DNA of 64,000 nucleotides from an uncultured Bacteroidales bacterium (GTDB taxonomy: Bacteria; Bacteroidota; Bacteroidia; Bacteroidales; UBA932): assembly GCA_947179325.1 (NCBI GenBank), contig CAMXAU010000014.1:1532-65531 (forward strand). Direction: 5' to 3'. Of the stretch, positions 4,855 through 37,600 are shown piece by piece (the first letter of the stretch is position 1; the number at the start of each line of letters is the position of its first letter). Position numbers and translations under genes: made by a program. A model generated the notes under the pieces. The model had not been told where the DNA came from. It ran no database searches and saw nothing but the letters and a program-made list of their open reading frames with translations.

Positions 4855-4865
4855 CAGTATTGATT

Positions 4866-7994: not shown

Positions 7995-8000
7995 ACAGTG

Positions 8001-9713: not shown

Positions 9714-9733
9714 TTAATAAACACATGAATTAT

Positions 9734-12061: not shown

Positions 12062-12076
12062 TTATAATATGACATT

Positions 12077-14221: not shown

Positions 14222-14244
14222 TTAGAGTGTTGATTATATAGAAT

Positions 14245-14274
14245 GGGGGACCGGAGATGCAGATCCGGTCCCCC
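14245..14274. terminator. Hairpin between convergent PL12 and HTCS genes
   Basis: Perfect 11-bp stem GGGGGACCGGA / TCCGGTCCCCC. Confidence 0.75.
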
Positions 14275-14331
14275 TTGTCTTATCCTGTCCATTGCCGGCA
14301 AGAGTCATGGCAAAATCGGAATGGCTGAACT

Positions 14332-19180: not shown

Positions 19181-19256
19181 TTAGGGTATTTAAAAAACTT
19201 AAGTCTTATATGCAGGAATGCGGATTTTTTCTATATGTGATTCTTTTGAATCTCCT
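19181..19256 (+). repeat. Left direct repeat of the 18.5-kb insertion (promoter plus signal-peptide-coding remnant)
   Basis: 19181-19226 matches 37718-37764 except A6 vs A7; 19227-19256 matches 37823-37852 at 29/30. Confidence 0.9.
19183..19210 (+). promoter_or_regulatory. Putative ECF-sigma promoter AGGGTA-N13-AGTCTTATA
   Basis: Same bipartite motif at 37720 (N14) and immediately upstream of the anti-sigma gene at 53174 (N15). Confidence 0.55.
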
Positions 19257-19628
19257 TATAGTCATCGGTTTGTATCCGGGGATGCCTGTGGACTTTATGT
19301 CGTGAAGGGCGAAGAGCTAATTGTGTCCAATGCTAAGTTTGAGGCTGAGGTTTCCGGTGAGGACATCAGATGGGTCCCTGCAGATGGAAGCATTGATATT
19401 GTCCATAATGAGGGCAATGTTTATTTCCTATATTATCCTCTCCATACTGTGAGGACGGCTATATGGATGGTAAGGCTGACAGGCGGTATGCCGCAAGCAG
19501 TGAACGATACAGGTATTTTTATCACTCTGGCTTTCATGGATAAGGACGTAATGGAGAAATGTCATTTATCCAACAGGCCCCCGCAATCGCCATTGTCCTT
19601 GCGGAACTTGTCCAGGTCAATCAGCATG

Positions 19629-19690
19629 ATTGAGACAATATTGCATGTTTTGAGACGAAAGTTTCAGGCTTCCGGAAATATATGTCATAA
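19629..19690 (+). promoter_or_regulatory. Conserved TGAGAY tandem motif, copy 1
   Basis: 19631-19667 is 33/38 identical to 21147-21184; followed by TGTCATAA and the -7 box TAATTTTG (19688-19695). Confidence 0.6.
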
Positions 19691-19730
19691 TTTTGCAGTC
19701 ACCAATAATATAGACACTAAAACATATCAG

Positions 19731-20174
19731 ATGAAAGGCAGTATCACATCAATAGGTGATGCCATACGGTGCAATAGGGCAGATATGGCCGTCTTGTGTC
19801 TCGTCGTACTGTATATCATATCAGCTGATGTGCATGGCAATATTGTATCTTGGGCTGTGCTTTCGGATGCTTTGCCTTATGTTCTGCTGTATGCTGTAGC
19901 CAGACTGTGCTTTTCCTTGTCCTACAGAAAGATGACGCTTTTAGTGTATGCCACTCTCTGTGTATGGACAATCTATGAATCGGTGCTGGGACTGACCCGG
20001 CTTTGGGGGATTACGGCGTCCGGACATGCAGGATTTCCTATGACAGGAACATTCTTTAATCCGGGACCTTTGGGAGGACTTGTCTCAATAGGTCTGGCGG
20101 CATCATTGGCCTATCTTTGCGGCCACAAGAAATTTATATCGGCAAAAATACCTTTTAAATGTCTATGCCGGTAA
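19731..20174 (+). pseudogene. Truncated O-antigen-ligase-like gene (N-terminal TM segment only)
   Basis: CVWTIYESVLGL...SGHAGFPMTGTFFNPGPLGG aligns with CIWGIYESALGL...SGHESFVLTGSFTNPGPYGG of 25369..27282 but stops after ~147 aa. Confidence 0.75.
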
Positions 20175-20249
20175 ATGAAAGGCGTCGCCCTATGTTGAGG
20201 ATGAAGATGGAAACAAAATAAAAACTGTCATATTTAAGAAAGGATAGCA

Positions 20250-21125
20250 ATGAATAATAGAAAGATCTATAGGATACTTGGTACTGTGGTGATGACAGTG
20301 GCAGCAATAGTGGTCCTTGCCGTTACAGTTCCGGTGTTCTTCTTTGACCAGTTCCTGATTGGCGGAAGTTCCATGGAGCCGACCTTGCATACCGGTGACC
20401 ATGTGCTTGTGAACAAACTGCTTCATGGAGCAAGAATCTACAGGACATATGATTTTTCTGTTCCTGAGATGGAATGTTTCCGTATGCCTGGCTTCAGGAA
20501 GGTGAGGCCTGGGGATATTGTCGTTTTTAACAATCCTGACGCCCATAAGGGCAAAGGGCTAAGTTTCAGGATAAATGATGTCTATGCCAAAAGATGCATA
20601 GGAAATCCTGGCGACACGGTGTCTGTGGTCAATGGCTTTTATTCCAATAGCAGCATTAAGGGGCCGATAGGTAACGTCATGAACCAGCAGGAATTGTCAG
20701 AAACGCCGGATTCTGTCTTGAATGGACATGGAGTGGTACTTAAGGCTGCCCAGTTTGCCGGACGTTATGGCAAGTGGACTATAAAGGATTTCGGACCGTT
20801 GAGGGTGCCGGCGAAAGGAGACATCGTAAAGTTGTCTTCCGGAAATGTCAGGCTATATAGTAAGATTATACGTTACGAGACCGGTATGGCTCCATCTGTA
20901 AAGGATGGTAAAGTGCTGTTTGGCGGTATCCCTGTTGATGAATACGAATTTACGCATGACTATTATTTTTTCGGGGGAGACAATGTTCTGGATTCGCGTG
21001 ACAGCCGTTATTTCGGCCTTGTTCCCGATGAATTCATAGTAGGAGTGGCAACCAGAGTGCTGTTTTCCCGTCCGGCAGCTACCGGCAAGACAGATCGGAG
21101 CAGATTCTGGAAAAAACTTCCCTGA
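20250..21125 (+). CDS. lepB: Signal peptidase I (S26), accessory long form
   Basis: N-terminal TM; catalytic Ser box GGSSMEPTL..GD; Lys box YAKRCIGNPGD; GDNVLDSRDSRYFG. Confidence 0.93.
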   Translation: MNNRKIYRILGTVVMTVAAIVVLAVTVPVFFFDQFLIGGSSMEPTLHTGDHVLVNKLLHGARIYRTYDFSVPEMECFRMPGFRKVRPGDIVVFNNPDAHKGKGLSFRINDVYAKRCIGNPGDTVSVVNGFYSNSSIKGPIGNVMNQQELSETPDSVLNGHGVVLKAAQFAGRYGKWTIKDFGPLRVPAKGDIVKLSSGNVRLYSKIIRYETGMAPSVKDGKVLFGGIPVDEYEFTHDYYFFGGDNVLDSRDSRYFGLVPDEFIVGVATRVLFSRPAATGKTDRSRFWKKLP

Positions 21126-21144
21126 CTTCAGTTATAACTGGTTG

Positions 21145-21196
21145 ACTGAGATAATATTACAAGTTTTTGAGACGAAAGTTGCAGTTTTTGTCATAA
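21145..21196 (+). promoter_or_regulatory. Conserved TGAGAY tandem motif, copy 2
   Basis: TGAGAT 21147, TGAGAC 21168, TGTCAT 21189: 21-bp period, upstream of the transglutaminase operon. Confidence 0.6.
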
Positions 21197-21217
21197 AAAC
21201 AATATTTCTTTGCAATA

Positions 21218-23260
21218 TTGATAACCTATACCATTTTGAGACCACATAAATTAATTGCCGTAACTATAACCTTATGTGCGTTATGTTTTTCCATGCTCAG
21301 CTGTTCTGGACCTGATAGCCGTCTTGAACAGGTGCTGGCACTTGCTGGAAGCAACCGTCCGGAACTTGAAAAAGTGCTGAGGAGATATTCATCTCCTGAA
21401 GACAGCCTGAAATACCGTGCCGCAGTTTTTCTTATTGAGAACATGCCGGGATACGGGTATTATGAAGGGACGCCCCTTGACAATTTTCTTGAATATTACC
21501 CTCTGCTGCGGAGTGTCAGACTCAAGAAGCAGTCTCCTGATGTTGCAGTGGATTCCATAAACAGGAAATACGGAAAATTTGACCTCTCCGCTCTGCATTA
21601 TAAAGAGGATATCCGTACAGTCGATTCCGCATATCTCTGCAGGAATATAGAATGGGCTTTCAGGGTGTGGGAGGAACAGCCTTGGGGCAGGAATGTAGGC
21701 TTTAGGGATTTCTGTGAATATATACTTCCTTATCGTGTCGGCAATGAGACTCTTGCAGACTGGAGGGAAATGTACTATGAAAAGTATAACGGCATACTTG
21801 ACGGTCTGCGCAATTCTGGCTGTTCTGACCGTGAGGATCCTGCGGCTGCAGCCCGTATTATAACAGACTCCCTTACCGGGCCTAAGAAGATATTCTTCAC
21901 AAGTGCGGCTCCCGCAGCCCTGCCCCATATAGGGCCTGTGGCAGCCGATTACCGTAGCGGCAGCTGCCGCGATTTGGTGGACTTTGCCCTCTATGTCTGC
22001 CGTGCCTTGGGAATACCGTGTGCATCTGACTACATGCCTTTCAGAGGGGACGGGAATGTTGGGCATGAATGGGCGGCTTTTCTCGGGCGTGACAGCCTCT
22101 ACTGTCAGGATATGGGAAACCCTATGGTCAATTCAAGTAAAATCAGTACTCTCCGTAAGTTGAAAGTGTATCGCCGGACATTCAGTATAAACAACAGGCT
22201 CAATGATGTGGATATACCTGATTCTGACAGGCCTGAATTCCTGAAAAGACCATGTTTCGAAGATGTGACGCCGGCCTATGCCATAGATTTCCTGAAGACG
22301 CTTAAAGTCCCTGTAACTGAACTCTACAGTGGACTCAAGCCGAAGACGGTCTGTCTGTGCATGAGCAGCCGCTTTTCATGGGTTCCGGTAGCTGTCGGAA
22401 AGTTCTGCCGGGGTAATGCGGAGTTTGAGGATATAGACTGCAATACTCAGGTTATGAGGGTGGCTTCTGTCAAGGACGGCAAGGTCATGTTCCTGAGTGA
22501 CCCGTTCTATGTAAAGGAATCCGGCGACCTGCATTTCTACCGTGCCGGCAAAGAACTTCGGGACATTACGGTGTTCCGTAAGTTTCCTGAGCTTCAAGAG
22601 TTGTGGCTTCAGAGGCGTATGCTTGGTGGCGTCTTTGAGGGAAGCAACAGTCCGGATTTCACAATGAAAGATACGCTTCATATTATTACAGAACTTCCTA
22701 AGCGCCTTCTTGTCCCGGCCCGACCCCGGAAATCCGGCCCTTATCGGTATGTGCGGTATTTCGGTCCGAGGAACGGCTTCTGTAACATTGCTGACATGTA
22801 TGTCTACGGAGCAGACGGGGAACTGCTGACCGGAAAGCCTATAGGTGTTCCTGGCAGCTATAGTGGTGACAATAAGTACGACTATTGGAGTGCATTGGAT
22901 GGAAACGGTGAGACTTCATTTGATTCACGCACATCGTATGGGGCATGGGTGGGGCTTGATTTGGGCAAGCCAAAAGAGATTGGCAGGATTGTCTACACAG
23001 CAAGGAATCGGGACAATCATGTGCGCCCTGGAGACGAGTACGAACTGTTCTATTGTGACGGGAACTGGAAGTCTGCCGGAAGGGTAACGGCATCATCTGA
23101 TTCGATTCTTTACAAAGGCATTCCCAAAGGGGCACTCTATATTCTTGATAATCTTACTCGTGGTACTCAGATAAGAGTATTTTCATACGATGAAGGTGTT
23201 CAGGAATGGTTAAGACCACGTCAACAAGAGAATTTAGCCATTCAAAATGGCAATATTTAA
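21218..23260 (+). CDS. Transglutaminase-like domain lipoprotein with C-terminal F5/8 type C (discoidin) domains
   Basis: Lipobox MLSC; FCEYILPYR, GSCRD (Cys), RALGIP, GHEW (His); discoidin-like ALDGN...WVGLDLGKPKEI. Confidence 0.82.
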   Translation: MITYTILRPHKLIAVTITLCALCFSMLSCSGPDSRLEQVLALAGSNRPELEKVLRRYSSPEDSLKYRAAVFLIENMPGYGYYEGTPLDNFLEYYPLLRSVRLKKQSPDVAVDSINRKYGKFDLSALHYKEDIRTVDSAYLCRNIEWAFRVWEEQPWGRNVGFRDFCEYILPYRVGNETLADWREMYYEKYNGILDGLRNSGCSDREDPAAAARIITDSLTGPKKIFFTSAAPAALPHIGPVAADYRSGSCRDLVDFALYVCRALGIPCASDYMPFRGDGNVGHEWAAFLGRDSLYCQDMGNPMVNSSKISTLRKLKVYRRTFSINNRLNDVDIPDSDRPEFLKRPCFEDVTPAYAIDFLKTLKVPVTELYSGLKPKTVCLCMSSRFSWVPVAVGKFCRGNAEFEDIDCNTQVMRVASVKDGKVMFLSDPFYVKESGDLHFYRAGKELRDITVFRKFPELQELWLQRRMLGGVFEGSNSPDFTMKDTLHIITELPKRLLVPARPRKSGPYRYVRYFGPRNGFCNIADMYVYGADGELLTGKPIGVPGSYSGDNKYDYWSALDGNGETSFDSRTSYGAWVGLDLGKPKEIGRIVYTARNRDNHVRPGDEYELFYCDGNWKSAGRVTASSDSILYKGIPKGALYILDNLTRGTQIRVFSYDEGVQEWLRPRQQENLAIQNGNI

Positions 23261-23288
23261 TATTGTTAACTTTAAAATTTATCTTATT

Positions 23289-23657
23289 ATGAGAAAATTT
23301 TTTGTTTTATTGGCAGGAATGGTTCTATTCCTTGCTTCCTCTTTAACTTTCATTTATGTGAAAGGAGAAAATGATTCTGTGAACGATTTACTGTCAGCAA
23401 ATGTAGATGCTTTGGCGGATAATGAATCAAGTGGAGGGCTTGATGCAAATTATCACCGGATTGACTCCAAGTGTGAAGTCTTTGTATCTGCAGGAATGCA
23501 AATCGATATCTTTGGAATAGGAATAATAACTGCCAAAGCTGATGGTAAAATTGCTATTGATGGAAAGGTTGTCTGTCAATCTAAAGGTAATGAGACATGC
23601 CGTCCTGTCGAATGCTCTGATCTGTATAGTGTCATATTGCATGGAGGAGAGCGATGA
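23289..23657 (+). CDS. NVEALA-family secreted Cys-rich peptide (122 aa; NVDALA variant)
   Basis: Basic N-terminus, hydrophobic helix, polar spacer, LLSANVDALA (aa 34-43), then 79 aa with C62, C96, C104, C109. ATG at 23289 within ORF 23247. Confidence 0.8.
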   Translation: MRKFFVLLAGMVLFLASSLTFIYVKGENDSVNDLLSANVDALADNESSGGLDANYHRIDSKCEVFVSAGMQIDIFGIGIITAKADGKIAIDGKVVCQSKGNETCRPVECSDLYSVILHGGER

Positions 23658-24778
23658 GAAAATTTCCATATTTTTCTTTTGTACTTAGTCTGGTTGTCAT
23701 ATCATGTGTCAGCCAGACCAAGAATGAACCTAATGTTCAGGGGATATCTGTTGACATAAACAAACAGGCTGATATCAGCGAGTTCGTATCCTCGTTTGAC
23801 GGTTATGTCTGTCTTGAAACATACGAAGAATGCCTTGTCAATGAAATCCGGAAACTGAAGATGGTTGGTGATACTATTTATGTTGCCGATGATACTAAGA
23901 TTACGATGTTCAGTCGCAGGGATGGTTCTTATCTCGGCAAGATTCATAAGCATGGCCGGGGGCCTGGAGAATACATTACATTAACTGATTTTGATGTATT
24001 TGACTCCAGATTGTATGTGTTGTCGAATGTAGATCGCGAGATTATTATGTACAATGCCTCCGGTGATGTTCTGAGAATTATCAATACCGGTGAAGGATTC
24101 AGCAACTTGTCGGTGATAGACGAAGACAATATCTGGCTTTATTCTTCTGACAGCAATGACAGTATGTACAACTTCATTCTGATTGGTCCGGATGCCGATG
24201 TGAAAGCAAAGTACGACAAATTTTCTAAGAATCAGAGTTATACAATTGAAGACATTACATTCTGCGGTTCTGTTTCGGATACGTTGTATGTCTCCCAATA
24301 TTATGACAACATCGTGTATTCCTTGCATTATGACGGTTATGTTCCGTTATACCGTTTTGATATGAACCTCCGGAACACTGTGTCTCAGGAGGAGCTGTCG
24401 GCAACACCTTTAAGTGAACTGCACAAGACTTATAAATATAAGGAATCATTTCGTAGTATAATGCATATTGACAGAAACAGGCACACGTTATTTGCTGAAA
24501 CATGGTGCTTTCTTGACGGTCTGGCATTGAAGACCTGTTTTGTCAAAGCCGACATGGTGACCGGAAAATCTCATTTTTATATCTGCGGTTACGATGTTGA
24601 TGAGCGATTCCCATTGTTTGATCTATCTGACGTGATAGGGTACGACGGTAAGGTATTGATTTCATATCTTACTGCATTCTCAGCTAAAAAACATGGGAAA
24701 AAATATAAGATAGGCAATCTCGCTGACATATCCGAATACGACAATCCAGTCATCGTCTTTCACACTTTAAATTATTAA
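23654..24778 (+). CDS. 6-bladed beta-propeller lipoprotein, copy 1
   Basis: Lipobox VISC; LET..ECLV..I, GRGPGEY motif, C-terminal DNPVIVF; 4-nt overlap with the peptide gene. Confidence 0.85.
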   Translation: MRKFPYFSFVLSLVVISCVSQTKNEPNVQGISVDINKQADISEFVSSFDGYVCLETYEECLVNEIRKLKMVGDTIYVADDTKITMFSRRDGSYLGKIHKHGRGPGEYITLTDFDVFDSRLYVLSNVDREIIMYNASGDVLRIINTGEGFSNLSVIDEDNIWLYSSDSNDSMYNFILIGPDADVKAKYDKFSKNQSYTIEDITFCGSVSDTLYVSQYYDNIVYSLHYDGYVPLYRFDMNLRNTVSQEELSATPLSELHKTYKYKESFRSIMHIDRNRHTLFAETWCFLDGLALKTCFVKADMVTGKSHFYICGYDVDERFPLFDLSDVIGYDGKVLISYLTAFSAKKHGKKYKIGNLADISEYDNPVIVFHTLNY

Positions 24779-24781
24779 GCG

Positions 24782-25363
24782 GTGAACAGGTATCTATTCG
24801 GAATCCTTATTATGTTATCGTCTTTGTCGGTTTCTTGCTCGAACAGCCAAAATGATATGAAAGATGCTATTGTGGCATTTCGTCAGAAGCAGATAATATT
24901 ACCGGAAGAACTTGTCAAAGTGGAAAACAGGAATATATCGAAGAGTATATTGGAGCAGGCTGAGGTAAAGATGGTCATTTACTATGACTCTTTGGAGTGC
25001 AGCTCCTGTAAAGTCTCCCATCTGAAAGAGATGCAATATCTTTATGAACTTTCTGACAAGTTACCTATGTTAGAGGTTTATACGATTTTTTCTCCCTTGC
25101 AGCAGGAATATGACCAGACTATGGTAGATCTGATGATGTTAAATTTCCCATATCCGATATATGTAGACAATACTTGTTCTTTTGAAAAGAATAATCCTGA
25201 TTTTCCTGAAGACAAACGCTTTCATAGTTTTCTTTTGGATAAAACCGGACATCCGGTTTTTGTCGGTAACCCGACAGCAAGCGATAAGCTTTGGGACCTG
25301 TTCCTGAAAGTTATGGATAACCTTCAGGAAAATGATGGAGTCTATATAGATGTTTTGAAATAA
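24782..25363 (+). CDS. Thioredoxin-like lipoprotein with CxxC
   Basis: Lipobox SVSC; YYDSLECSSC; FLLDK...VFVGNP; GTG start. Confidence 0.7.
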   Translation: MNRYLFGILIMLSSLSVSCSNSQNDMKDAIVAFRQKQIILPEELVKVENRNISKSILEQAEVKMVIYYDSLECSSCKVSHLKEMQYLYELSDKLPMLEVYTIFSPLQQEYDQTMVDLMMLNFPYPIYVDNTCSFEKNNPDFPEDKRFHSFLLDKTGHPVFVGNPTASDKLWDLFLKVMDNLQENDGVYIDVLK

Positions 25364-25368
25364 ACGCT

Positions 25369-27282
25369 TTGAGACAATTTAAAAACATAATTCTATTGAT
25401 TGTATGGACGGTTGCGGCTGTTGCAATTGTCCATACAATTATTCTCGTGTCTAAGCCTGTAGAATTAATGCATTATACTACTGCAGGCCTATTGGTGTGT
25501 GCTACATCTCTGTTTATACCGACTATAATAATATTAGTGGTAGAACAGAAAGTTATACAATGGAACATAGTGGATATAGTTCTCGTCTGTCTGGTGATTC
25601 TTTATTGTATATCAGCATCAGTGAATAATCAACGTATTTCAATCTTTTGGATGCAGGAATTCTTTCCGTATGCTATCATGTATATATCCTTTAAGGTTCT
25701 TTTCGGCATAAAGAAAAGATTGGTAAGCTGGTTTGTATTTATCATATTTTGTATTTGGGGAATTTATGAAAGTGCTTTAGGATTGGGACAGATTTTCGGC
25801 AGTGTACCTTCTGGACATGAATCTTTTGTATTGACAGGCAGTTTTACTAATCCGGGACCATACGGAGGATTTATAGCTTTTCTTATGACTGTTTTGGTCG
25901 GATACTTGATTGAATATGGGAAATGTGTCAATGTTATATGTCGGCCTGTTATTGACGGGATGCGTACTATTGGATTAAAACGATTAACCAGTAGCCGCTA
26001 TGCCGCATGGTGTATATTCAGGTTATTGCCTATAATTTTAGCTGCTATTGCTGTGATTTTATGCATTGTAGTGTTTCCTGCCTCAATGAGCCGTGCTGGT
26101 TGGTTGGCATTTGCTTGTGGCTTAATGCTTTGTCTTATACGTGAAACAGGAATTATCAAGTCTGTATTAAGTCATAAAGCAATATCTGCCATTATGTTGA
26201 TTACCATATTGTCTGCTGTCGCGACGATATTCATGATGAAGAAAGATTCAGCAATCGGAAGATTCCATATCTGGAATATGGAGGCAAAGGCAATAATTGA
26301 AACTCCGTTTATCGGTACTGGACCAGGTGCTGTTCTTGGGCAATACGCAAAGATTCAAGAAAATTATTTTAAGGAAAACGAGTGTTCACAAAAAACTGTA
26401 AATGTTGCAGGTGCACCATCGTATGCATTCAACGAATATCTTAAAATAGGTATGGAGACAGGAATTGCAGGCACATTACTGGCTTTATGTGTCGTTGTTC
26501 TTGCAATTATACAGCTTTTACGCTCGAATGATATATTCGGTTATGGGCTTGTAGCAATAGCGGTTTTTGCATTTTTTTCTTATCCTTTAAGTGTAGCACA
26601 GTTTTCTATATGTATAGTTGCAATGCTTGCATTGTCAAGTTGCCATGATTCTGAAGTGCTTAAGTTACAAAAGAAAAAGAATACATATGTATTGTGCAAT
26701 TCATTGTTGACGATTTTTGTCATTGGTCTTGTGCTATTTGGAATAACTGATTTATATAAAGTTTATAAATCACGGGAAAAGGCATCTGATGATTGGCGGA
26801 TGGCAAGGCAATGGACTCTTATGAAAAAATATGATTGTGCTGCAGAAGAACTTGAGACATTATATCCGTACCTATTCTGGAGTTATCAGTATCTTTACGA
26901 ATATGGATACGCTTTGCATAGGGCTGGTATGTATGAAAAAAGCAATGTAATCTTTACTGAAGGCACTTTGATATCCGCAGATCCAATGTTTCATAACATG
27001 ATAGGGAAAAATTATATGGAAATGGGTTCTTATGATTATGCGGAAAAGGAGTTAATTAAGTCGCATTATACTGTTCCATGTCGTCTATATCCATTGGTCT
27101 TGCTTATGGAAATGTATATGGACATCAATTTGACAGAAAAGGCTAAAGAAGTAGGTGATAAAGTCTTGAATATGAAGATAAATAAAAAGAATGGAACTAT
27201 GATAGAACTTAGAAGGCGTGCAGAAGAATGTTTAAAGATTTTGAAACATGATGTTAATGAAATTAATGGCATTTCCAATTGA
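25369..27282 (+). CDS. O-antigen-ligase-like (Wzy_C) polytopic membrane protein with C-terminal TPR
   Basis: Many TM helices; SRAGWLA, DSAIGRFHIW, PFIGTGPG, AFNEYL; TPR-like YEYGYAL...NMIGKNY...AEKEL. Confidence 0.85.
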   Translation: MRQFKNIILLIVWTVAAVAIVHTIILVSKPVELMHYTTAGLLVCATSLFIPTIIILVVEQKVIQWNIVDIVLVCLVILYCISASVNNQRISIFWMQEFFPYAIMYISFKVLFGIKKRLVSWFVFIIFCIWGIYESALGLGQIFGSVPSGHESFVLTGSFTNPGPYGGFIAFLMTVLVGYLIEYGKCVNVICRPVIDGMRTIGLKRLTSSRYAAWCIFRLLPIILAAIAVILCIVVFPASMSRAGWLAFACGLMLCLIRETGIIKSVLSHKAISAIMLITILSAVATIFMMKKDSAIGRFHIWNMEAKAIIETPFIGTGPGAVLGQYAKIQENYFKENECSQKTVNVAGAPSYAFNEYLKIGMETGIAGTLLALCVVVLAIIQLLRSNDIFGYGLVAIAVFAFFSYPLSVAQFSICIVAMLALSSCHDSEVLKLQKKKNTYVLCNSLLTIFVIGLVLFGITDLYKVYKSREKASDDWRMARQWTLMKKYDCAAEELETLYPYLFWSYQYLYEYGYALHRAGMYEKSNVIFTEGTLISADPMFHNMIGKNYMEMGSYDYAEKELIKSHYTVPCRLYPLVLLMEMYMDINLTEKAKEVGDKVLNMKINKKNGTMIELRRRAEECLKILKHDVNEINGISN

Positions 27283-27465
27283 GACGAATACGAACTGTTC
27301 TATTGCGATGGTAACTGGAAATCGGCCGGCACTCTCTATATCCTGAACAATCTTACGCGCGGTAAAGACATAAGAGTGTTTTCCTGCGATGAAGGTGTGC
27401 AGGAATGGGACCGTCCGAAACGTAAAGAAAATCTACCATTGTATTATGATATTATTCATATTTAA
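27283..27465 (+). pseudogene. 3' remnant of a second transglutaminase-discoidin gene
   Basis: DEYELFYCDGNWKSAG-TLYILNNLTRGKDIRVFSCDEGVQEW versus DEYELFYCDGNWKSAG[17 aa]ALYILDNLTRGTQIRVFSYDEGVQEW at the end of 21218..23260. Confidence 0.9.
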
Positions 27466-27477
27466 ACTAAGTGAACA

Positions 27478-28605
27478 ATGAAAAGGGTATTCAACATTTC
27501 AGTATTATTGCTTGGGTTCATTGTGACAGCTTGTGTCAATGAGCCCAAGCGTCAGGACGATGTCCGGGTGATAACAGTGGATGTCACCAGGCAGGCTGAC
27601 ATCAGCAAGTTCGTGTCGTCCTTTGACGGATGTGTGCCTCTTGAGACGAATGAAGACTGTTTGGTTGATGAAATCCGGAAACTGAAGATGGTTGGTGATA
27701 CTATTTACATTGCCGATGATACTAAGATTATAATGTTCAGCCGCAGGGATGGTTCTTATCTCGGCAAGATTCATAAGCAGGGTCGGGGGCCGGGGGAATA
27801 CATTACATTAACCAATTTTGATGTATTTGATTCCAAATTGTATGTACTATCAAGTATTGATGAAGAAATTATAGAATATAGTTCTTGCGGTGATGTATTG
27901 AGAACAATTGATACAAAAGAAGGATTTAGAGATTTGTTGGTAATGAACAAGAACAATATTTGGCTATATTCTTCTGATAGTAATGATTTAATGTATAATT
28001 TCATATTGATTAACTCGGATTCAAACGTAAAGGCTAAATATGATTCATTTTCAGAAAATCAAAGTTTTATATTGTCAGATGATGTCTTTGTGAATCAGAG
28101 TCCGGATACATTATATACTGCTAAATATTTTGATAATACAGTCTATGTTTTACATAGTGATGGCTATTACCCGAAATACAGATTTAATATGAATCTTAAA
28201 CATCTAATATCTCAAGAAGAATTGTCATCAACACGCATAAAAGTTCTATATGATACATATAAATACAAAGAAACTTTGTGTCAGGTAATGCATATTGACA
28301 GAAATGAGAATACGCTGTTTGCGGAAATTTTATGTTTTCTTGACGGTCTGGCATTGAAGACCTGTTTTGTCAAAACCGACATGGTAACCGGGAAATCCCA
28401 TTTTTATATCCGTGGTAATGAAGTTGACGAACGATTTCCATTGTTTGATTTGTCAAGAGCTATAGGCTATGATGGCAAGACTCTGATTTCATATCTTCCG
28501 GCATCTTCGGCAAAAAGATTCCAACGGGAATATAAACTGGATTATTTTTCCGACATATCCGAATACGACAATCCAGTCATTGTCTTTCATACTTTAAATT
28601 ATTAA
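27478..28605 (+). CDS. 6-bladed beta-propeller lipoprotein, copy 2 (no adjacent peptide gene)
   Basis: Lipobox VTAC; colinear paralog of 23654..24778 with the same C-terminus DISEYDNPVIVFHTLNY. Confidence 0.87.
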   Translation: MKRVFNISVLLLGFIVTACVNEPKRQDDVRVITVDVTRQADISKFVSSFDGCVPLETNEDCLVDEIRKLKMVGDTIYIADDTKIIMFSRRDGSYLGKIHKQGRGPGEYITLTNFDVFDSKLYVLSSIDEEIIEYSSCGDVLRTIDTKEGFRDLLVMNKNNIWLYSSDSNDLMYNFILINSDSNVKAKYDSFSENQSFILSDDVFVNQSPDTLYTAKYFDNTVYVLHSDGYYPKYRFNMNLKHLISQEELSSTRIKVLYDTYKYKETLCQVMHIDRNENTLFAEILCFLDGLALKTCFVKTDMVTGKSHFYIRGNEVDERFPLFDLSRAIGYDGKTLISYLPASSAKRFQREYKLDYFSDISEYDNPVIVFHTLNY

Positions 28606-28608
28606 GCG

Positions 28609-28671
28609 ATGAACAAGTATATATTTGGAATACTTATTCTGTTTTACTGTGGGGTGTTGTGCACATGGTAG
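28609..28671 (+). pseudogene. 5' stub of a second thioredoxin-like gene
   Basis: MNKYIFGILILF versus MNRYLFGILIML, at the same 3-nt spacing after the propeller stop; homology ends after ~11 codons. Confidence 0.7.
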
Positions 28672-28808
28672 TTTGCGAACAGAAAAGACTCAATCATCAC
28701 TGGTTAGTGCATATGACTGTCCTTACTTTGGCCGTGGGCGATTGTGATAAGATTGCATACGGTGCCAATTCAAACTGATTTAAGGGTAATGCGTTGATAT
28801 ATAATATT

Positions 28809-30317
28809 ATGGTGGTAAGAAAGAAATTAATGATGATATATGTTGCCCTGCTGCTTGTCTGTCCGGTCATGCTGCTTCCTGCTCAGGAGAGAGGTGGAAT
28901 GCTTGCCGCAAGGATGAGCCTGGAGGAGGTAATTGATTCTGCCCGGACGCGTTCGGTGTCTGCACTGGCGGCCAAGGCTTCGTTCGTGTCGAGCTACTGG
29001 GCATTCCGTTCCTATAAGGCGAGCCGTCTGCCGTCACTCAATTTCTATGGAAATCTTGCCTCATTTGACAGGTCCCTGCGTCTGCTTCAGAACTATGAGA
29101 CCGGAGAAATGGTCTATACGGGCAATTACAACATGCAGAACAAGGTCGGGCTGTCCATAAAGCAGAATATCACTTTCACGGGAGGAAGTCTTTCGCTCTA
29201 TTCTGACCTTTCCCGTATAGACCAGTTCGGAAGCAATGCCCACAAGACTTATTATGCGCAGCCGATAACCCTTTATTACGAACAGCCTCTTCTTGCCTAC
29301 AACCGTTTCAAGTGGGACAGGAAAATTTCACCGAAGGAATACGAGAAGGCAAAGAGGACATATCTGGAGGCTATGGAGGCTGTTACAATCCGTGCCGTGA
29401 AGTATTATTTTGACTTGATGAAGGCCAAGCTCAACCACGAAAAGGCCGTGACCAACTATTCCAACACCCGTCAGATGTGCTCTGTGGCGGCAGAACGCAT
29501 GAGTCTTGGCAGCGTGACACGTGATGAATATCTCCAGCTTGAGCTGCGCATGCTTAACGACAGCATTTCAATCAATGAGTCGGCAATCAGGGTGAAGGAG
29601 GCGCAGATGACGCTCAATTCCCTTCTTGGCTACGGTGAAGGACTTGAGATTGAACCGGAAGTCACAGGAGAATTGCCTGATATCTGGATGGATTATGATG
29701 TGGTAATGTCCAAGGCTCTGGAGAATTCTTCATTCCTGCTTGACAATGAAATCCGGGTGCTCAATGCGGAGTCTGCCATTGCCCAGGCAAAGGCCAACAG
29801 AGGGGCTTCCGTCTCCCTGAGCGCAAGGTTCGGACTTAGCAATTCCAACGGGCATTTCCGTGAGACCTATACAGGCCTTCTCGACCAGGAAGTGGTGGGC
29901 ATCACATTCTCTGTTCCGATTTTCGACTGGGGACTTGGCAAGGGACGTGTGAAGAATGCCAAGGCAAAGGCGGCTGTGGTGAAGGCAGAAGTCGCACAGG
30001 CTGAGCAGGACTACCGTAGAAGTGTCTATACGGCAGTGGGACAGTTCAACAACCAGAGGCAGCAATGCATGGTTTCTGCACGTGCAAGCCGGATAGCACA
30101 GGAACGCTACTCGCTGATGATGGAGAAATTCCGTAGCGGACGGGCTTCCGTTACCGACCTGAATACGGCACAGAACGAGAATGATTCCGCAGTGAGCCGT
30201 TATGTGACTGACCTGAGCAATTTCTGGAACTATTATTATACTCTCAGGCAGCTGACCCTGTATGATTTCATCCGTAATGCGGATATTGATGTTGATTTTC
30301 TTGAACTTATAAGATAA
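28809..30317 (+). CDS. TolC-family outer membrane channel
   Basis: ORF 28794..30317; signal peptide; LSLEEVI-like start, VPIFDWG, two OEP-like coiled-coil repeats. Confidence 0.9.
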   Translation: MVVRKKLMMIYVALLLVCPVMLLPAQERGGMLAARMSLEEVIDSARTRSVSALAAKASFVSSYWAFRSYKASRLPSLNFYGNLASFDRSLRLLQNYETGEMVYTGNYNMQNKVGLSIKQNITFTGGSLSLYSDLSRIDQFGSNAHKTYYAQPITLYYEQPLLAYNRFKWDRKISPKEYEKAKRTYLEAMEAVTIRAVKYYFDLMKAKLNHEKAVTNYSNTRQMCSVAAERMSLGSVTRDEYLQLELRMLNDSISINESAIRVKEAQMTLNSLLGYGEGLEIEPEVTGELPDIWMDYDVVMSKALENSSFLLDNEIRVLNAESAIAQAKANRGASVSLSARFGLSNSNGHFRETYTGLLDQEVVGITFSVPIFDWGLGKGRVKNAKAKAAVVKAEVAQAEQDYRRSVYTAVGQFNNQRQQCMVSARASRIAQERYSLMMEKFRSGRASVTDLNTAQNENDSAVSRYVTDLSNFWNYYYTLRQLTLYDFIRNADIDVDFLELIR

Positions 30318-30321
30318 TAGG

Positions 30322-31407
30322 ATGGCTATGGATATTTATAGAACAATGATTGTTTCCGTTGCTGCATTTTCAGTAGCTTATGGATGTGGAGTCAAGGGTG
30401 GAAATGACGGAGGACGTGACGGAAGGCTCCAGTATACTCCTGAGGTGAATAAGGTGGAGGTCATGGAACTGAAGCGGTGCAGTTTCATGAGACAGCTGAC
30501 CGCCAATGGCAAGCTTGTCGCTGCAGGAAAGAGCTCCCTGTCGTTCAACACTTCCGGTACGGTGTCTGAGCTATATGTCAGCAATGGCCAGTCTGTCAGG
30601 GCTGGAGATGTGCTTGCCGAGCTGGAGCAGCGTGAGAAGAAGCTTGCATTGGAGGCGGCGGGCATTTCCCTGGAGAAGGCAGAGATAGATTTTTATGACG
30701 TTCTTGCCGGGCAGGGCTATCAGGCCAGGGATACGGCATCTGTTCCTAAGGATATCCTTGATATGGCAAAGATGCGTTCCGGCTACAGGTCAGCATTGAA
30801 CAGCTATCAGAGGGCGGCCATAGATTTTGAACGGACAGTGCTCAAGGCCCCTTTTGCCGGCAAAGTGGCTGACGTGAAGTTCAGGAAATATGACAATGTG
30901 TCTTCCGGGGCCTTCTGTATGCTGATTGACGACAGTATGCTTGATGTGGACTTCTCCGTCCTGGAGTCTGAATATAGCTTTGTAAAGGAAGGCCTTACGG
31001 TGTCTGTCGCTCCTTTCACCGGAGCCGGTGTGGCTCTGGAGGGGCATGTTACGGAAATAAACCCGACAGTGGACAAGTATGGGCTTGTGGCTGTGAGGGC
31101 ACGTGTCAGGAATGACGGCAGCCTTATTGACGGTATGAATGTGAGTGTGACGGTCTGCAGGGATGTCCCGGATGTGTTGGTGGTCCCTAAAAGTGCAGTG
31201 GTGATAAGGGATAATCTGGATGTGCTGTTCAGATATAAGGACGGAAAGGCAATGTGGACATATGTCCATGTGCTTATGTCCAACAGTGCCAGCCATGTGG
31301 TGACGGCAAATACGGACCGTGGGGCGGAGCTGAATGAAGGTGACATGGTCATTGTATCCGGAAACCTTAATCTCGGTGACGGCTCGTCCGTAGAAATCGT
31401 AGACTGA
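30322..31407 (+). CDS. RND periplasmic adaptor (membrane fusion protein)
   Basis: Lipoyl half motifs G.VSELYV.NGQ.V.AGD and LKAPFAGKV; LVVPKSAV. Confidence 0.92.
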   Translation: MAMDIYRTMIVSVAAFSVAYGCGVKGGNDGGRDGRLQYTPEVNKVEVMELKRCSFMRQLTANGKLVAAGKSSLSFNTSGTVSELYVSNGQSVRAGDVLAELEQREKKLALEAAGISLEKAEIDFYDVLAGQGYQARDTASVPKDILDMAKMRSGYRSALNSYQRAAIDFERTVLKAPFAGKVADVKFRKYDNVSSGAFCMLIDDSMLDVDFSVLESEYSFVKEGLTVSVAPFTGAGVALEGHVTEINPTVDKYGLVAVRARVRNDGSLIDGMNVSVTVCRDVPDVLVVPKSAVVIRDNLDVLFRYKDGKAMWTYVHVLMSNSASHVVTANTDRGAELNEGDMVIVSGNLNLGDGSSVEIVD

Positions 31408-31409
31408 CT

Positions 31410-34400
31410 ATGCTGAACAGACTGATAGACCGCCCTATAAGTGTCACGATGGTCCTCCTCGTGGTGCTTGTGCTTGGAATCACAGCAATCCGTCTTCTCC
31501 CTGTGTCCCTGATTCCTGATGTGGATGTGCCTTATATTACGGTTCAGGTGACAGCTCCGGACCTTTCCGCGCGGGAGATAGACGAGACCATCCTCAAGCC
31601 GCTCAGGCAGCAGCTTGTGCAGGTCGGTTCTCTTGAAGATGTAAGGAGCGAGGCTAAAGACGGAAGCGGTACCGTTGCCCTGACCTTCTCTCAAGGTGCT
31701 GACATGGATTATCTCTTTATCGAGGTCAACGAGAAAATTGACAGGTGCATGTCATCGTTCCGGGATGTGGAGAGGCCGAAAGTCCTCAAGTCCGGTGCTG
31801 CTGATATTCCGGCTTTCTATGTCAACATCACCCTCCGGGATGAAACGGTCCTGCCGGATGAGACTGATAGGGGACTGTTTCCGGTGTCCCAGTCGTTTCT
31901 TGACATGAGTTGTTTCGCTTCAGATGTAGTGGCCAAGAGGATTGAGCAGCTTAAGGAGGTCGCAATGGTTGACCTGAGCGGTGGTGTGCGTCCGGAGCTT
32001 CTGATTATCCCTGACAGGGATGCGCTGAAGAGATTGGGCATGACGGAGTCTGGTTTTGAGAATGTAGTCAAGGCTGCCGATATCCGCCTTGGCAGTCTGA
32101 CTATAAGGGACGGGGAGTACCGCTATAATGTGAAGTTCCGCTCTTTTGCTTCAGACAGGTCCGATATAGAGGACCTTTATCTGGAAGTTGGCGGTAAGGT
32201 GATGCAGGTCAAGGATATTGCCCGTGTGATAGAGCATCCTTCCAAGAGGACAGGGCTGGTGATGTCCGACGGCAGGGATGCTGTGACCATGGCAGTGATA
32301 AAGCAGAGCAGCGCCAGGATGGCAGAACTGAAGAAGGCTATGAACAGTCTGATGAAGCAGTTCCGCCGTGACTATCCTGAAATGGAGTTTACCGTGACGC
32401 GTGACCAGACAGAGCTTCTGGAATATTCCATTGACAATCTGATTCAGAATATAGTAGTGGGTATCCTGCTGGCCTGTCTGATAATTTTCCTTTTCATGAA
32501 GGATTTCAGGTCTCCTATGCTGGTGGTTTTCACCATTCCTGCCGCACTGGTGTTCTCGATGCTTGTCTTCTACGTGATAGGATTGACCATCAATATCATA
32601 TCACTTTCCGGCCTTGTGCTTGGAGTGGGAATGATGGTGGACAATACCATAGTGCTTATAGACAATATCACGGCACGGTGGCAGAGGGGAGAACAGCTGC
32701 GCCGTGCAGTTGTGAAAGGTACATCGGAAGTGCTTGCTCCTATGCTGAGTTCCATGCTCACTACATGTGCAGTATTCATCCCGCTGATTTTTATGAGCGG
32801 TATAGCCGGAGCCATGTTCTATGACCAGGCTATGGCAATAACAGTGGTGCTTGCCACATCGTATGTGGTGACTGTGACTGTCGTGCCTGTATATTACTGG
32901 TGGTGGTACCACAGATCCGATGCTTTTGTGCCGAACCGCTTTCTTGAACGGCTGTCTTCCGGGAAGGGTGTACTTATGTATGAAAAGGGTGTGGAATGGC
33001 TCGTGAGGCGAAGATTGGTCTGCTGGGGAGTCCTTGCGGTGTCGGTTGCCGGCATCATCGTGTGTTTTTCATATATGCCCAAGGAGAAGCTTCCCGAAGT
33101 TACCTACACGGACACTTTGTTGAAAATCAACTGGAACAGCCAGCTTGCGCTTGACAGGAATACAGAGCGTGTCAGACGTCTGGACTCTTTGGCGAAAGGC
33201 TACTCCATGCAGTCCACTGCGCTTGTGGGGATGCAGCAGTTTGTCCTCGGCCATAGCGGGGACCAGTCTGTTTCAGAGACTACGGTCTATCTTAAGGCTC
33301 ACGATGCCCATAGCCTTGGCAGGCTTAAGGATGAGATTTCTACATTTCTTATGAAGGAATATCCCGACTGCATATATTCCTTTGAGTCTTCGGGCAATAT
33401 TTTCGACATGGTCTTTTCCGAAAAGGAACCTGAACTTCTTGCGCGTTTCCGTCCTGTGTCTCTTCCGGAGCTTGATGTGGAGTCCATTCAGGGGCTGACT
33501 TCAGACCTTGCACGTAGTCTTCCATATCTGCATATACCTCCGGTCCCTCTCAAGACAGATGTCCTGTATGTCGCAGATCCTCAGGTGATGGCGCTTTACG
33601 GTGTGTCATACTCCCAGCTTGCAGGGGTTCTGAAGAATGCCCTCAATGAGAACCGTCTGTTCAATATTGTCCAGGGGGACAGGACATTGCCTGTAGTCAT
33701 GGGTGTTGACACAAGGGAGATGGACGATATTGTCCGGAACACCTTCCTGTATCGTGACGGTGCCGGACTGCCGGTGAGTGCTTTTATGAAGCAGACATAC
33801 GAAGAGGACCTCAAGAGTATAGTTTCCGGGGTGGAGGGCAGCTACTATCCTCTTCCGCTTGACCTCCCTGACAGCGATGTCTCCAGTGTCATGGATGACA
33901 TCCGCGAAGTGACATACAGGAACGGGAATTTCGATGTAAGCTTTACTGGGTCATATTTCAGCAGCAGGAAGATGGTCAGGGAACTTGCTCTTGTGCTTAT
34001 TGTGGCTGTAGTCCTTCTTTACCTCATACTTGCCTCTCAGTTCGAGTCCCTTGTCCAGCCTCTGATAATCCTGTCAGAAATTGTGATAGACATTTTTGTC
34101 TCACTTGCCGTGCTCTGGCTCTGTGGCGCATCCGTCAATCTCATGTCAATGATAGGCCTTGTGGTCGTGTGTGGCATCGTCATCAATGATTCCATCCTTA
34201 AGATTGACACCATCAACAGGCTGCGGCGTTCCGGAACGGGACTCTACCATGCCATTCTTCTCGGGGGGCAAAGAAGGCTGAAGGCTATAGTCATGACTTC
34301 ATTGACTACAATCCTTGCGGTATGTCCGTTTCTTGTCCGGGGTAATATGGGGGCGGACCTCCAGTATCCTATGTCACTTGTCATCATTGCGGGAATGATA

Positions 34401-34469
34401 ACAGGTACTGCTGTCAGTCTCTTCTTTGTGCCGATTGTCTATTATGAAATATACAGGAAGAGGAAATGA
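31410..34469 (+). CDS. RND transporter permease, subunit 1
   Basis: LIDRPISV start, LPVSLIPDVD, GMMVDNTIV, LASQFES, RRLKAIVMTSLTT. Confidence 0.92.
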   Translation: MLNRLIDRPISVTMVLLVVLVLGITAIRLLPVSLIPDVDVPYITVQVTAPDLSAREIDETILKPLRQQLVQVGSLEDVRSEAKDGSGTVALTFSQGADMDYLFIEVNEKIDRCMSSFRDVERPKVLKSGAADIPAFYVNITLRDETVLPDETDRGLFPVSQSFLDMSCFASDVVAKRIEQLKEVAMVDLSGGVRPELLIIPDRDALKRLGMTESGFENVVKAADIRLGSLTIRDGEYRYNVKFRSFASDRSDIEDLYLEVGGKVMQVKDIARVIEHPSKRTGLVMSDGRDAVTMAVIKQSSARMAELKKAMNSLMKQFRRDYPEMEFTVTRDQTELLEYSIDNLIQNIVVGILLACLIIFLFMKDFRSPMLVVFTIPAALVFSMLVFYVIGLTINIISLSGLVLGVGMMVDNTIVLIDNITARWQRGEQLRRAVVKGTSEVLAPMLSSMLTTCAVFIPLIFMSGIAGAMFYDQAMAITVVLATSYVVTVTVVPVYYWWWYHRSDAFVPNRFLERLSSGKGVLMYEKGVEWLVRRRLVCWGVLAVSVAGIIVCFSYMPKEKLPEVTYTDTLLKINWNSQLALDRNTERVRRLDSLAKGYSMQSTALVGMQQFVLGHSGDQSVSETTVYLKAHDAHSLGRLKDEISTFLMKEYPDCIYSFESSGNIFDMVFSEKEPELLARFRPVSLPELDVESIQGLTSDLARSLPYLHIPPVPLKTDVLYVADPQVMALYGVSYSQLAGVLKNALNENRLFNIVQGDRTLPVVMGVDTREMDDIVRNTFLYRDGAGLPVSAFMKQTYEEDLKSIVSGVEGSYYPLPLDLPDSDVSSVMDDIREVTYRNGNFDVSFTGSYFSSRKMVRELALVLIVAVVLLYLILASQFESLVQPLIILSEIVIDIFVSLAVLWLCGASVNLMSMIGLVVVCGIVINDSILKIDTINRLRRSGTGLYHAILLGGQRRLKAIVMTSLTTILAVCPFLVRGNMGADLQYPMSLVIIAGMITGTAVSLFFVPIVYYEIYRKRK

Positions 34470-37400: not shown

Positions 37401-37600
37401 AGATAAACCCGATTATGCTTACTGTCATTTCCACAGTCCTTGGTCTGCTTCCGTTCCTTTCGGATGGCCCGGAGGAGGTGTTCTGGTTTGCATTTGCGGT
37501 GGGCACCATTTCCGGAATGCTGTTTTCTCTCATTGCCCTTGTGGTCTATCTTCCGGTCTTCTGCCTTGCCAGGCCCTCGGGAAAAGGCAAACGTGGATAA
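34466..37600 (+). CDS. RND transporter permease, subunit 2
   Basis: AcrB-like topology, GIMIDTAIV, PIMLTVIST; 4-nt overlap with subunit 1. Confidence 0.9.
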   Translation: MKVNSGIRIPSFSVLLITAVIAVLGIASVPMLNVRYTPEQAGNTISVSFSWNGVSARIMEAEVTSRIEGVLSGIRDNSGVSSTSDRGKGSVRVKFRKGTDMAAARFEVASRIRNIYPKLPEGVSYPAISLGTRGTGGTTAVTFVLKADIPSKEIEKFVTARLMTPLSRIDGVEKVSFWGASPFEWVVTFDMHKADAVGVDADAIASAFNYWFGAEMIGMASTDDGMVSVKLACMSGEDFGDIPIVNRNGRIVYLREIADFRYQESLPSSYHRINGLNTINLSVSVEPETNLLRMSSEIRSTMSGLEASFPEEITVSVSHDASEYIAKELDRIYFRTFLCLLVLLVFVFLVSRSWRYLFVIALTLVADILAAIVLYNLLDITVHIYTLAGITVSLGIMIDTAIVMADHYSYCRNRSVFPALLGATGTTVGALCVILLLPEQDRKNLTDFAWIIMVNLSVSLITAYLFIPSLIDRYPLRRSAYSLSLKRRRRIIRWNRRYQAFIEACLRRRWVLAVVLVASFGIPTCLLPEKLGSRNPDRMQKVYNGIMGWPPYADNRKDVDGILGTSFAMFSKAMDRSDFYREPGRQSLQIDAAMPEGCTVGQLNEVVRSMENYLCKFGQIEMFTTDVKSYDNASISVSFRPEYENTSFPAELKSQVISMANNFGGATWRVYGVNNNYFSNNVRSDYKSYTISLKGYNYDELVSYADTLMDILSVNRRVSELEFVTPSGRLPVNEYNMEYDFGKMSVSGVNPYRYYQKLSTVLYQRNLVSVVEDGEMTSVVLKSSESENFDYWHVVNSQVRVDSTYARLSELGSVEKRRTGFPIVRNNQSYEVKVGFNFIGSYELSNSLISKTVKYMNDEVLPVGYKASSRGWGVWSQEKKGKYGKLILLVAAIIFVMCATVFNSLRLPFAVILMIPVSFIGVFLAFGLSDFTFDQGGFAAFVMLSGVVVNAGIYLVDTFRKDRSGRSDVRRYIRAFNHKINPIMLTVISTVLGLLPFLSDGPEEVFWFAFAVGTISGMLFSLIALVVYLPVFCLARPSGKGKRG

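Follow-up and report, generated by a model that had tools for sequence, protein, structure and literature searches.

We analyzed a stretch of 64,000 nucleotides (nt) from the genome of an uncultured Bacteroidales bacterium of the UBA932 lineage (assembly GCA_947179325.1, contig CAMXAU010000014.1; hereafter the window), and specifically a small gene on its forward strand whose product carries the hexapeptide NVDALA. Going by its profile matches and homologues, the gene is a long-core member of the uncharacterised, Bacteroidales NVEALA family. The comparison of its relatives shows that the leader, up to the third residue behind the hexapeptide (P3', counting its last residue as P1), is the shared and conserved part of these proteins, while the rest is an exchanged cassette that diversifies together with the gene of a beta-propeller lipoprotein and usually also with that of a CxxC lipoprotein. 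In the alignments, the junction after NVDALA-DNES is at the same time a conservation boundary and a recombination boundary. A more far-reaching reading, to which we give a probability of roughly one in four, takes the gene islands around NVEALA genes as a Bacteroidales-specific system for maturation and export that has so far gone undescribed. In it, a signal peptidase of family S26, a Wzy_C protein with a tetratricopeptide repeat (TPR)-like region and a TolC-linked pump of the resistance-nodulation-division (RND) type would act together, cutting behind the NVEALA helix far from the membrane anchor and releasing a large repertoire of cassette-encoded disulfide-rich peptides or mini-proteins, each matched to its own propeller (for immunity or as receptor) and to its own thiol oxidoreductase.

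The open reading frame (ORF) at 23289-23657 gives a protein of 122 amino acids (aa) from the coding letters 23289-23654. The translation opens MRKFFVLLAGMVLFLASSLTFIYVKGENDSVNDLLSANVDALADNESSGG and the NVEALA-type product runs from MRKFFVLLAGMVLFLASSLTFIYVKGENDSVNDLLSANVDALADNESSGGLDANYHRIDSKCEVF to CQSKGNETCRPVECSDLYSVILHGGER. The start at 23289 (MRK) was favoured over the one at 23247, because the homologues begin with MRK or MKK and the upstream extension is not conserved, and the longer ORF is therefore considered a gene-caller artefact. The uncharged run F4-V24 covers 21 residues. Further on, N38-V39-D40-A41-L42-A43 are encoded by nt 23400-23417 and followed by D44-N45-E46-S47, so that the candidate cleavage site after A43 would be located at nt 23417/23418, inside the family motif (23400..23426). 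From D44 on the residues read DNESSGGLDANYHR; 79 of them are left after A43, with Cys at 62, 96, 104 and 109. The AlphaFold2 (AF2) model, built on a 72-sequence alignment, has helices at 2-27 (predicted local distance difference test score, pLDDT, >90) and at 29-43, the latter stopping exactly at A43. Downstream of the motif it has a coil (44-57) and, with low to moderate confidence, strands (58-95) and a helix (109-118). The architecture shown by these data begins with positive charge at the N-terminus; then come a hydrophobic helix of 21 residues, a polar spacer of 13, the amphipathic N-V-D-A-L-A-x-x-E helix, a flexible acidic Ser/Gly linker and a four-Cys domain of ~70 aa. An earlier note on this DNA, made from the letters, had correctly described the hydrophobic aa 4-24, NVDALA at aa 38-43, the DNES behind it, the four Cys and the 79-aa remainder. 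The features of the gene are the following:

23289..23657, forward strand: gene of the NVEALA-family pre-pro-protein, long-core subfamily (profile and homologues; start set by homologue starts)
23298..23360, forward strand: hydrophobic signal/anchor helix, aa 4-24, after M-R-K (sequence; AF2 helix 2-27, pLDDT 92-96)
23373..23417, forward strand: predicted amphipathic helix of the pro-region, aa 29-43, with NVDALA at its end (AF2, pLDDT ~77-81)
23400..23426, forward strand: family motif N-V-D-A-L-A-D-N-E, P6 to P3', at the leader/core junction (position statistics of 170 members)
23418..23459, forward strand: acidic Ser/Gly-rich linker, aa 44-57, of variable length in the family, with the diversity and recombination breakpoint at about codon 47/48 (AF2 coil 44-57; comparisons)
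23460..23654, forward strand: four-Cys beta-rich core domain, C62/C96/C104/C109, with a C-terminal helix (invariant Cys; AF2)

Against the Pfam model of the family (PF14055) the window protein scores 24.6 bits (E 2.1e-5, residues 6-55), under the gathering cut-off of 27. The scores of its relatives were 27.7 for the paralogue type P0005 (71% identical), 47.8 for the long-core protein P0029 and 29-41 for short relatives. A word-indexed search gave nine close homologues of 119-122 aa, and in an eight-sequence alignment (the window protein and seven homologues) aa 20-47 were almost invariant and the four Cys invariant. When the profile of the close homologues was searched against 1.8 billion proteins (E<=1e-3), 156 cluster representatives were recovered. 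About 100 of them match over their full length and are long-core proteins (105-130 aa) that have the same four Cys. About 40 match residues 1-50 only; these are the canonical short NVEALA proteins, whose Cys-rich tails (25-45 aa) are unrelated. Since long-core and short relatives, several of both kinds, pass the Pfam cut-off, the gene was assigned to the family as a long-core member. NVDALA is the only NVEALA-like hexapeptide in the six-frame translation of the window. The hexapeptide by itself would not be significant, but the match is to a family. PF14055 groups small Bacteroidota proteins of ~73-87 aa, whose function is not described. The window leader has the same hydrophobic N-terminus, spacer and N-[VI]-E-A-L-[AST]-x-x-E, but the protein differs in falling under the cut-off, in being 122 aa long and in having a ~70-aa four-Cys domain in place of the short Cys-rich tail. 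The long-core form appears to be a new variant inside an uncharacterised family, and its wider system is apparently undescribed; a literature search found no paper on the NVEALA family or its partner families, and nothing relevant on the components of the system in combination.

The statistics of the motif were obtained from 170 non-redundant members, with the Asn at P6 fixed by the search pattern. The consensus block is L-[LF]-x-A-N-[VI]-E-A-L-[AST]-x-x-E, in which the conserved upstream positions are P10 (Leu), P9 (Leu/Phe), P7 (Ala), P6 (Asn) and P5 (Val/Ile). P4 is Glu in 80% and Asp, the residue of the window protein, in 11%; P3 is Ala in 96%, P2 Leu in 95% and P3' Glu in 68%. At P1, Ala (46%), Ser (27%) and Thr (21%) add up to 94%, the remaining 6% being Leu, Met or Arg, and Gly is absent (0). 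Gln reaches 17% at P1' against 1.8% overall and 5.9% at the next-highest position, so this is the sole Gln peak in the leader. The entropy per position climbs after P3' and is at background from P4'. The hydrophobic run has a family median of 19 aa and its end is mostly 13-17 aa from the motif Asn. On the other side, the distance from the motif to the core is unconstrained, because in P0027, P0036, P0133 and P0145 the two are separated by low-complexity linkers of great length (GTTDPEK repeats, Gly/Ser runs) or by an additional Cys-rich insert.

The comparison of the window with one of its relatives, locus L003, gave a sharp break. Only 3/141 nt differ in codons 1-47, and 84/225 nt in codons 48-122. 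In a sliding comparison the nucleotide identity is 95-100% at the 3' end of the preceding gene and along the leader, up to about 23404-23430; it falls within 23405-23464 and then is 53-67% across the core and into the propeller gene. A like replacement, covering 23454-23764, was found in a contig from run X4. This run had also been considered as RNA evidence and was set aside, its RNA nature being only guessed and the relative in it diverged. In the Alistipes locus L009 there are six NVEALA genes with one leader (MKKKITIL.CM.L..SAA..TGY.MY...L.ANLEAL) and unrelated cores. Compared to the paralogue type, the window gene has 12 synonymous and 3 non-synonymous changes in leader codons 20-47, 3 and 11 in the hydrophobic region (h-region), and 17 and 21 in the core. 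By these counts the gene is under selection, purifying on the pro-region, which is its most constrained part. The entropy jump, the L009 paralogues and the window/L003 break agree with the view of the earlier note, that NVEALA defines a conserved leader with a variable product behind it, and the family alignment has the form it had foreseen, conservation ending three residues past the motif over the 170 members. That the core is variable holds across the family; inside the long-core subfamily, though, it is a conserved domain of ~70 aa and not a short hypervariable peptide.

The cassette extends to the neighbouring genes. Among the 33 loci found via the NVEALA protein (40 loci in all), a DUF5128/TolB-like propeller lipoprotein is located 3' of every NVEALA gene that has downstream sequence, and a CxxC lipoprotein usually comes next. 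In the window, the stop codon of the NVEALA gene and the start of the propeller gene share letters (ATGA). Where a locus has several paralogues, the propeller and the CxxC protein encoded beside the long-core gene resemble the window copies far more than their sister paralogues do. Actually, the adjacent propeller of L009 matches the window propeller at 2.7e-81 and the others at 4e-8 and 3e-9, and in L017 the values are 6.8e-31 for the adjacent one versus 1.4e-14 for the other. It is for this reason that we consider that NVEALA core, propeller and CxxC protein co-vary as a triad. In 37 propeller sequences the lipo-Cys18 is invariant and otherwise only Gly, one Glu, Tyr, Phe and Asn are conserved; an enzymatic role was discarded, no catalytic residue set being evident in them. 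The sole PDB sequence match is 4RAA, an uncharacterised exported protein, and a binding role is favoured on these two grounds. As to the CxxC lipoprotein, its lipo-Cys and CSSC are invariant in 12 orthologues and its four weak PDB profile matches are all thioredoxin-like, with no Pfam match and no single-sequence PDB match.

The four Cys of the core are invariant over 72 members with identities of 25-71%. The pLDDT is 74 for the full-length AF2 model and 61 for a model of the core alone, and Foldseek found no match of the core in the PDB at E<=1e-3. A kinship with 15 stretches of a 4136-aa protein of the type IX secretion system (overlapping Pfam Flg_new_2) was rejected, the probability in the profile comparison being 2.6%. 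Many long-core members (P0015, P0022, P0029) have a fifth Cys, since their core opens with L-D-C-x-Y and not with L-D-T/A-x-Y (window 23430-23440, aa 48-51).

The island of the window extends from ~19218 to 37600, with polysaccharide-utilisation loci on both sides. Besides the NVEALA gene, its features are:

19218..20174, forward strand: degraded Wzy-like gene directly 5' of the S26 gene (C-terminal part resembles the N-terminal part of 25369-27282; two ORFs in L001)
20250..21125, forward strand: S26 signal peptidase I paralogue with Ser41 and Lys114 (TIGR02227 92.2 bits, PF10502 99.6 bits)
21218..23260, forward strand: transglutaminase-like (papain-fold) lipoprotein with F5/8 type C domain (weak Pfam matches: F5_F8_type_C 26.8, Transglut_core 17 bits)
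23654..24778, forward strand: cognate DUF5128 six-bladed beta-propeller lipoprotein (PF17170 95.6 bits)
24782..25363, forward strand: CxxC thioredoxin-like lipoprotein (invariant CSSC and lipo-Cys; weak PDB profile matches)
25369..27282, forward strand: Wzy_C (O-antigen-ligase-like) membrane protein with C-terminal TPR-like region (PF04932 67.7 bits; weak TPR-type match at residues 508-624)
27283..27464, forward strand: remnant of the 3' end of a second transglutaminase-like gene, marking a lost second NVEALA cassette (comparison with L001)
27478..28605, forward strand: second DUF5128 propeller lipoprotein, orphan (an NVEALA gene precedes its L001 counterpart)
28794..37600, forward strand: TolC-like protein (OEP), membrane-fusion protein (MFP) and two RND transporter genes, a recurrent part of the islands (recurrence across loci)

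The S26 gene scores far above the cut-offs of both models (47 for TIGR02227 and 22.9 for PF10502), and its sequence has the motifs SMEPT (S41), KRCIG (K114) and GDNVLDSRDSR. By the family models and these Ser/Lys motifs, its product is a bona fide bacterial-type signal peptidase I (SPase I); the matches to TraF models were marginal (E 3e-4 to 5e-3, far below cut-offs). Seven S26 homologues (44-59% identity) were sampled, by long contigs only. All seven adjoin a Wzy_C gene and a TolC-MFP-RND-RND set, and the four with upstream flank have propellers and short NVEALA genes there (4/4). Among the NVEALA-anchored loci, S26 is present in L001, L007, L014, L018, L019, L027 and L033, and L014 has the same gene set, S26 included, in another order. 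A jackhmmer match in L013 is doubtful and was not counted, being without a phmmer match or an S26 motif. The shared neighbourhood suggests that S26 and the Wzy_C protein may work together. Judging by gene context, this S26 subfamily is dedicated to this type of island and coupled most tightly to Wzy_C and the pump, and it is not an obligatory NVEALA neighbour.

The SPase I signal peptides have an h-region of ~7-15 residues, with the cleavage site 3-9 residues behind it. In the window protein the uncharged run is of 21 aa and A43 is 19 residues past V24, which does not correspond to this spacing. The residues themselves do correspond, with the small A41 and A43 at -3 and -1 and D44, and thus no Pro, at +1. 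The earlier note had proposed that NVDALA is a displaced SPase I site, out of the reach of the housekeeping enzyme, at which the S26 peptidase of the island cuts between A43 and D44 and frees the 79-aa core. We regard this as possible but tentative. It would explain the conserved Ala-x-Ala geometry (P3 Ala 96%, P1 small 94%), and the long hydrophobic run followed by a 13-17-aa spacer is as it predicts. The dedication of the S26 subfamily to the islands also fits, as does P1 itself, which is Ala in 11, Thr in 5 and Ser in 1 of the S26-positive islands and mostly Ser/Thr in the well-flanked S26-negative ones, although these counts ignore phylogeny. In Bacteroidetes ~71% of the SPase I substrates expose Gln at +1 (PMC5837995), and the Gln peak at P1' would be a weak hint of a neo-N-terminus following this Q-rule (PMC5837995).

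There are several data that weigh against this site and against the model that we prefer (below). The Gln at P1' is found in just 17% of the family versus the ~71% of ordinary substrates, and the window protein has Asp. P1 is Thr in 21%, never Gly, in a few cases Leu, Met or Arg, and Val in L034, which is S26-positive. The conservation of P2 Leu (95%), P4 Glu/Asp (91%), P6 Asn and P3' Glu (68%) goes beyond what SPase I needs and is left unexplained by it. SPase I binds extended substrates, whereas the AF2 prediction for the isolated chain has a helix at 29-43 (pLDDT ~77-81). Many leaders, chiefly in the short family, carry a small-x-small pattern at the end of the run (..AVSA/FVYVK, the slash marking the cut), where the window protein has ..S-L-T/F. 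The Ser41 of S26 sits 9 residues past its own membrane helix, like in ordinary signal peptidases, and S26 was not found at <=10 kb in L009, L010, L012, L016, L021/L024 and L030, about half of the well-flanked islands. The models of the core are of low confidence (pLDDT 61-74) and without a fold match, and RND pumps are not known to be protein exporters.

Two parts of the model of the earlier note have thus to be narrowed. The distance of the site from the h-region is as it had said, with a segment of 21 aa (19 in the family median) and the motif 13-17 aa beyond; because the geometry of Ser41 is ordinary, however, the S26 paralogue does not by itself solve this distance problem. In the same way, the co-encoded peptidase is no chance neighbour, all seven homologues being in like islands, but about half of the well-flanked islands are without it at <=10 kb. 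With P2, P4 and P6 invariant, Glu at P3', much Thr at P1 and a predicted helix, the residue pattern resembles a recognition helix more than a generic SPase I c-region. We see the balance as even for a cleavage at the junction by an island-encoded protease, and consider S26, from its family and context, a credible shared processing enzyme. Its cutting exactly between A43 and D44 is a narrower hypothesis and rather doubtful.

A different possibility is that the only cut is made by the housekeeping SPase I, near aa 18-21. The NVDALA helix would then remain on a soluble protein, periplasmic or secreted, and serve for docking at its N-terminus. In 145/163 members the final 10 residues of the hydrophobic run contain a small-x-small pattern, and some members have canonical sites (..VSA/F, ..FNA/Q, ..YHA/Q); a helix so strongly conserved would also be in keeping with a surface for permanent interaction. 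Nevertheless, small-x-small is common in any Ala/Ser-rich helix, an upstream site of the Q-rule type is present in only 12/167 members, and the window protein would need Ser/Thr at P3/P1 and Phe at P1'. A cut of this kind gives no account of one leader on unrelated cores, or of a diversity break exactly behind the motif, and we think it unlikely. Less likely still is that the protein is not cleaved at all and stays in the membrane as a type II (N-in) anchored protein, with the helix on the membrane surface and the Cys domain displayed to the propeller partner. The 21-residue segment has transmembrane length and is predicted as a confident helix (AF2 2-27, pLDDT >90), and the flexible variable linkers, of up to ~40 aa in P0027 and P0133, would suit a tether. 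Opposed to this, the hypervariable Cys-rich tails of 25-45 aa on a conserved leader resemble released peptides, and a peptidase and a pump are dedicated to the island. Finally, Gly-Gly often appears 4-8 residues past the motif (in the window as SSGG), and about a quarter of the members have Gly at P5' or P6', but a double-glycine-type leader cut after G49-G50 by a C39 peptidase of an ATP-binding cassette (ABC) exporter is very improbable and was rejected, as the GG is unconserved and out of register in close homologues (SSGG, SGGK, SSGS, SSGV), none of the 40 loci yielded a C39/ABC gene, and a hydrophobic N-terminal helix is incompatible with recognition of the leader in the cytoplasm.

In the model that we prefer, Sec would insert the NVEALA protein with its N-terminus in and its C-terminus out, the long hydrophobic segment acting as anchor. 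The NVDALA helix would be the handle for a machinery present once per island, that is, S26 with its Wzy_C-TPR partner and/or the transglutaminase-like protease. A cut at A43, or a few residues after it, would free the core, S26 being the first candidate for it and the transglutaminase-like protease the second. The cognate CxxC lipoprotein would make the disulfides of the core, and the cognate propeller lipoprotein would bind it, in the role of a chaperone, a receptor or an immunity partner. Export of the core, or protection against it, may be the task of the TolC-MFP-RND pump.

Regarding the other genes of the islands, the transglutaminase-like lipoprotein has a GSC...GHEW motif and its gene recurs in islands of several lineages; from this motif and recurrence it would be a candidate for an alternative leader protease. 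The Wzy_C gene also recurs across islands, and in 12/15 of the S26-bearing loci S26 adjoins or overlaps it. A frame-0 remnant of the C-terminus of a transglutaminase-like protein (DEYELFYCDGNWKSAG..IRVFSCDEGVQEW..) precedes the second propeller gene (27283-27464). In L001, a strain variant, the same remnant is followed by a second NVEALA gene, and in the window that gene and the first ~37 codons of the propeller have been replaced, leaving an orphan propeller. The TolC-like protein of the island has at its start (28794-28900) a textbook signal peptide of the Bacteroidetes Q-rule, ..VMLLPA/QERGG, a local and ordinary SPase I site to set beside NVDALA/D. Locus L009 has in 2827-17709 six tandem modules, each of them with an NVEALA peptide, a ~360-aa propeller lipoprotein and a CxxC lipoprotein, and then the TolC-MFP set, with no S26 at <=10 kb. 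In L027 (12081-13121) a membrane protein of the MauE/DoxX family (PF07291, 54 bits) with a C-terminal extension is located between the CxxC gene and S26; the gene is also in L015, L026 and L033 (Paraprevotella-like islands) and is a further thiol-redox component. No recognised maturase of ribosomally synthesised and post-translationally modified peptides (RiPPs) was found in the window, where there are only thiol-redox proteins, Wzy_C-TPR, the transglutaminase-like protein and S26, and a folded core of ~70 aa is atypical for a RiPP. Outside the island (1-18360 and 37806-60527) the window is a typical Bacteroidales chromosome with SusC/SusD pairs and BT4661-like surface glycan-binding proteins. 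These flanks also hold heparinase II/III, the glycoside hydrolases GH20, GH109 and GH31, a hybrid two-component regulator and an extracytoplasmic function (ECF) sigma/FecR pair. Near-identical sequence to the window is found in gut metagenomes, and relatives in mouse gut.

The closest working analogies would be the pre-pro pathway of the toxin STa and dedicated signal peptidases such as SipW. In Escherichia coli, STa acquires its disulfides in the periplasm, a second cleavage strips the pro-region and the exit is TolC-dependent (PMC6356903). Both cases share a signal peptide, a pro-region and a Cys-rich mature part. They differ in that there is no sequence relation, that oxidoreductase, propeller, peptidase and RND pump are here co-encoded, and that the cores are cassette-like and far more diverse. 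The tapA-sipW-tasA operon of Bacillus encodes a dedicated signal peptidase of the S26 clan beside its own secreted substrates (PMC4292775). This arrangement is the same with TasA/TapA as here, but SipW is of the ER/archaeal type and acts on ordinary signal peptides at normal distance, while here we have a Ser/Lys SPase I and a proposed site ~19 residues past the hydrophobic segment. The mitochondrial Imp1/Imp2 and the conjugative TraF are likewise S26 paralogues with non-overlapping, non-canonical substrates, although they belong to other lineages and the matches to TraF models were marginal. The sites accepted by Imp1 can be at some distance past a hydrophobic sorting segment and have an acidic residue at P1'. 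A conserved signal and pro-region with a hypervariable disulfide-rich mature part is also characteristic of the prepropeptides of cone-snail toxins and of the Sec-dependent class II bacteriocins, and bacteriocins have a cognate partner gene beside each variant; with the NVEALA proteins, known here from sequence, the likeness would be one of architecture only.

In gut Bacteroidales (Prevotella, Alistipes, Bacteroides, Paraprevotella, and metagenome-assembled genomes from mouse and human gut), NVEALA genes are abundant and so are the propeller genes that go with them. What was a domain of unknown function becomes a defined system, in which the leader is shared, the junction motif is sharp and the Cys-rich cores can be swapped. 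Each core has its own propeller and thioredoxin-like protein, which co-evolve with it, and S26, Wzy_C-TPR, the transglutaminase-like protein and the RND-TolC pump are shared components. On the far-reaching reading, if it is true, these islands would amount to a new class of effector or bacteriocin-like system acting between gut bacteria, and to a second mode in which signal peptidase I recognises substrates. If S26 does cleave behind NVEALA, this would be an unusual instance of a bacterial signal peptidase I cutting away from the membrane anchor, and it would hint at many secreted peptides, hidden so far, which may have a part in the competition between gut bacteria.

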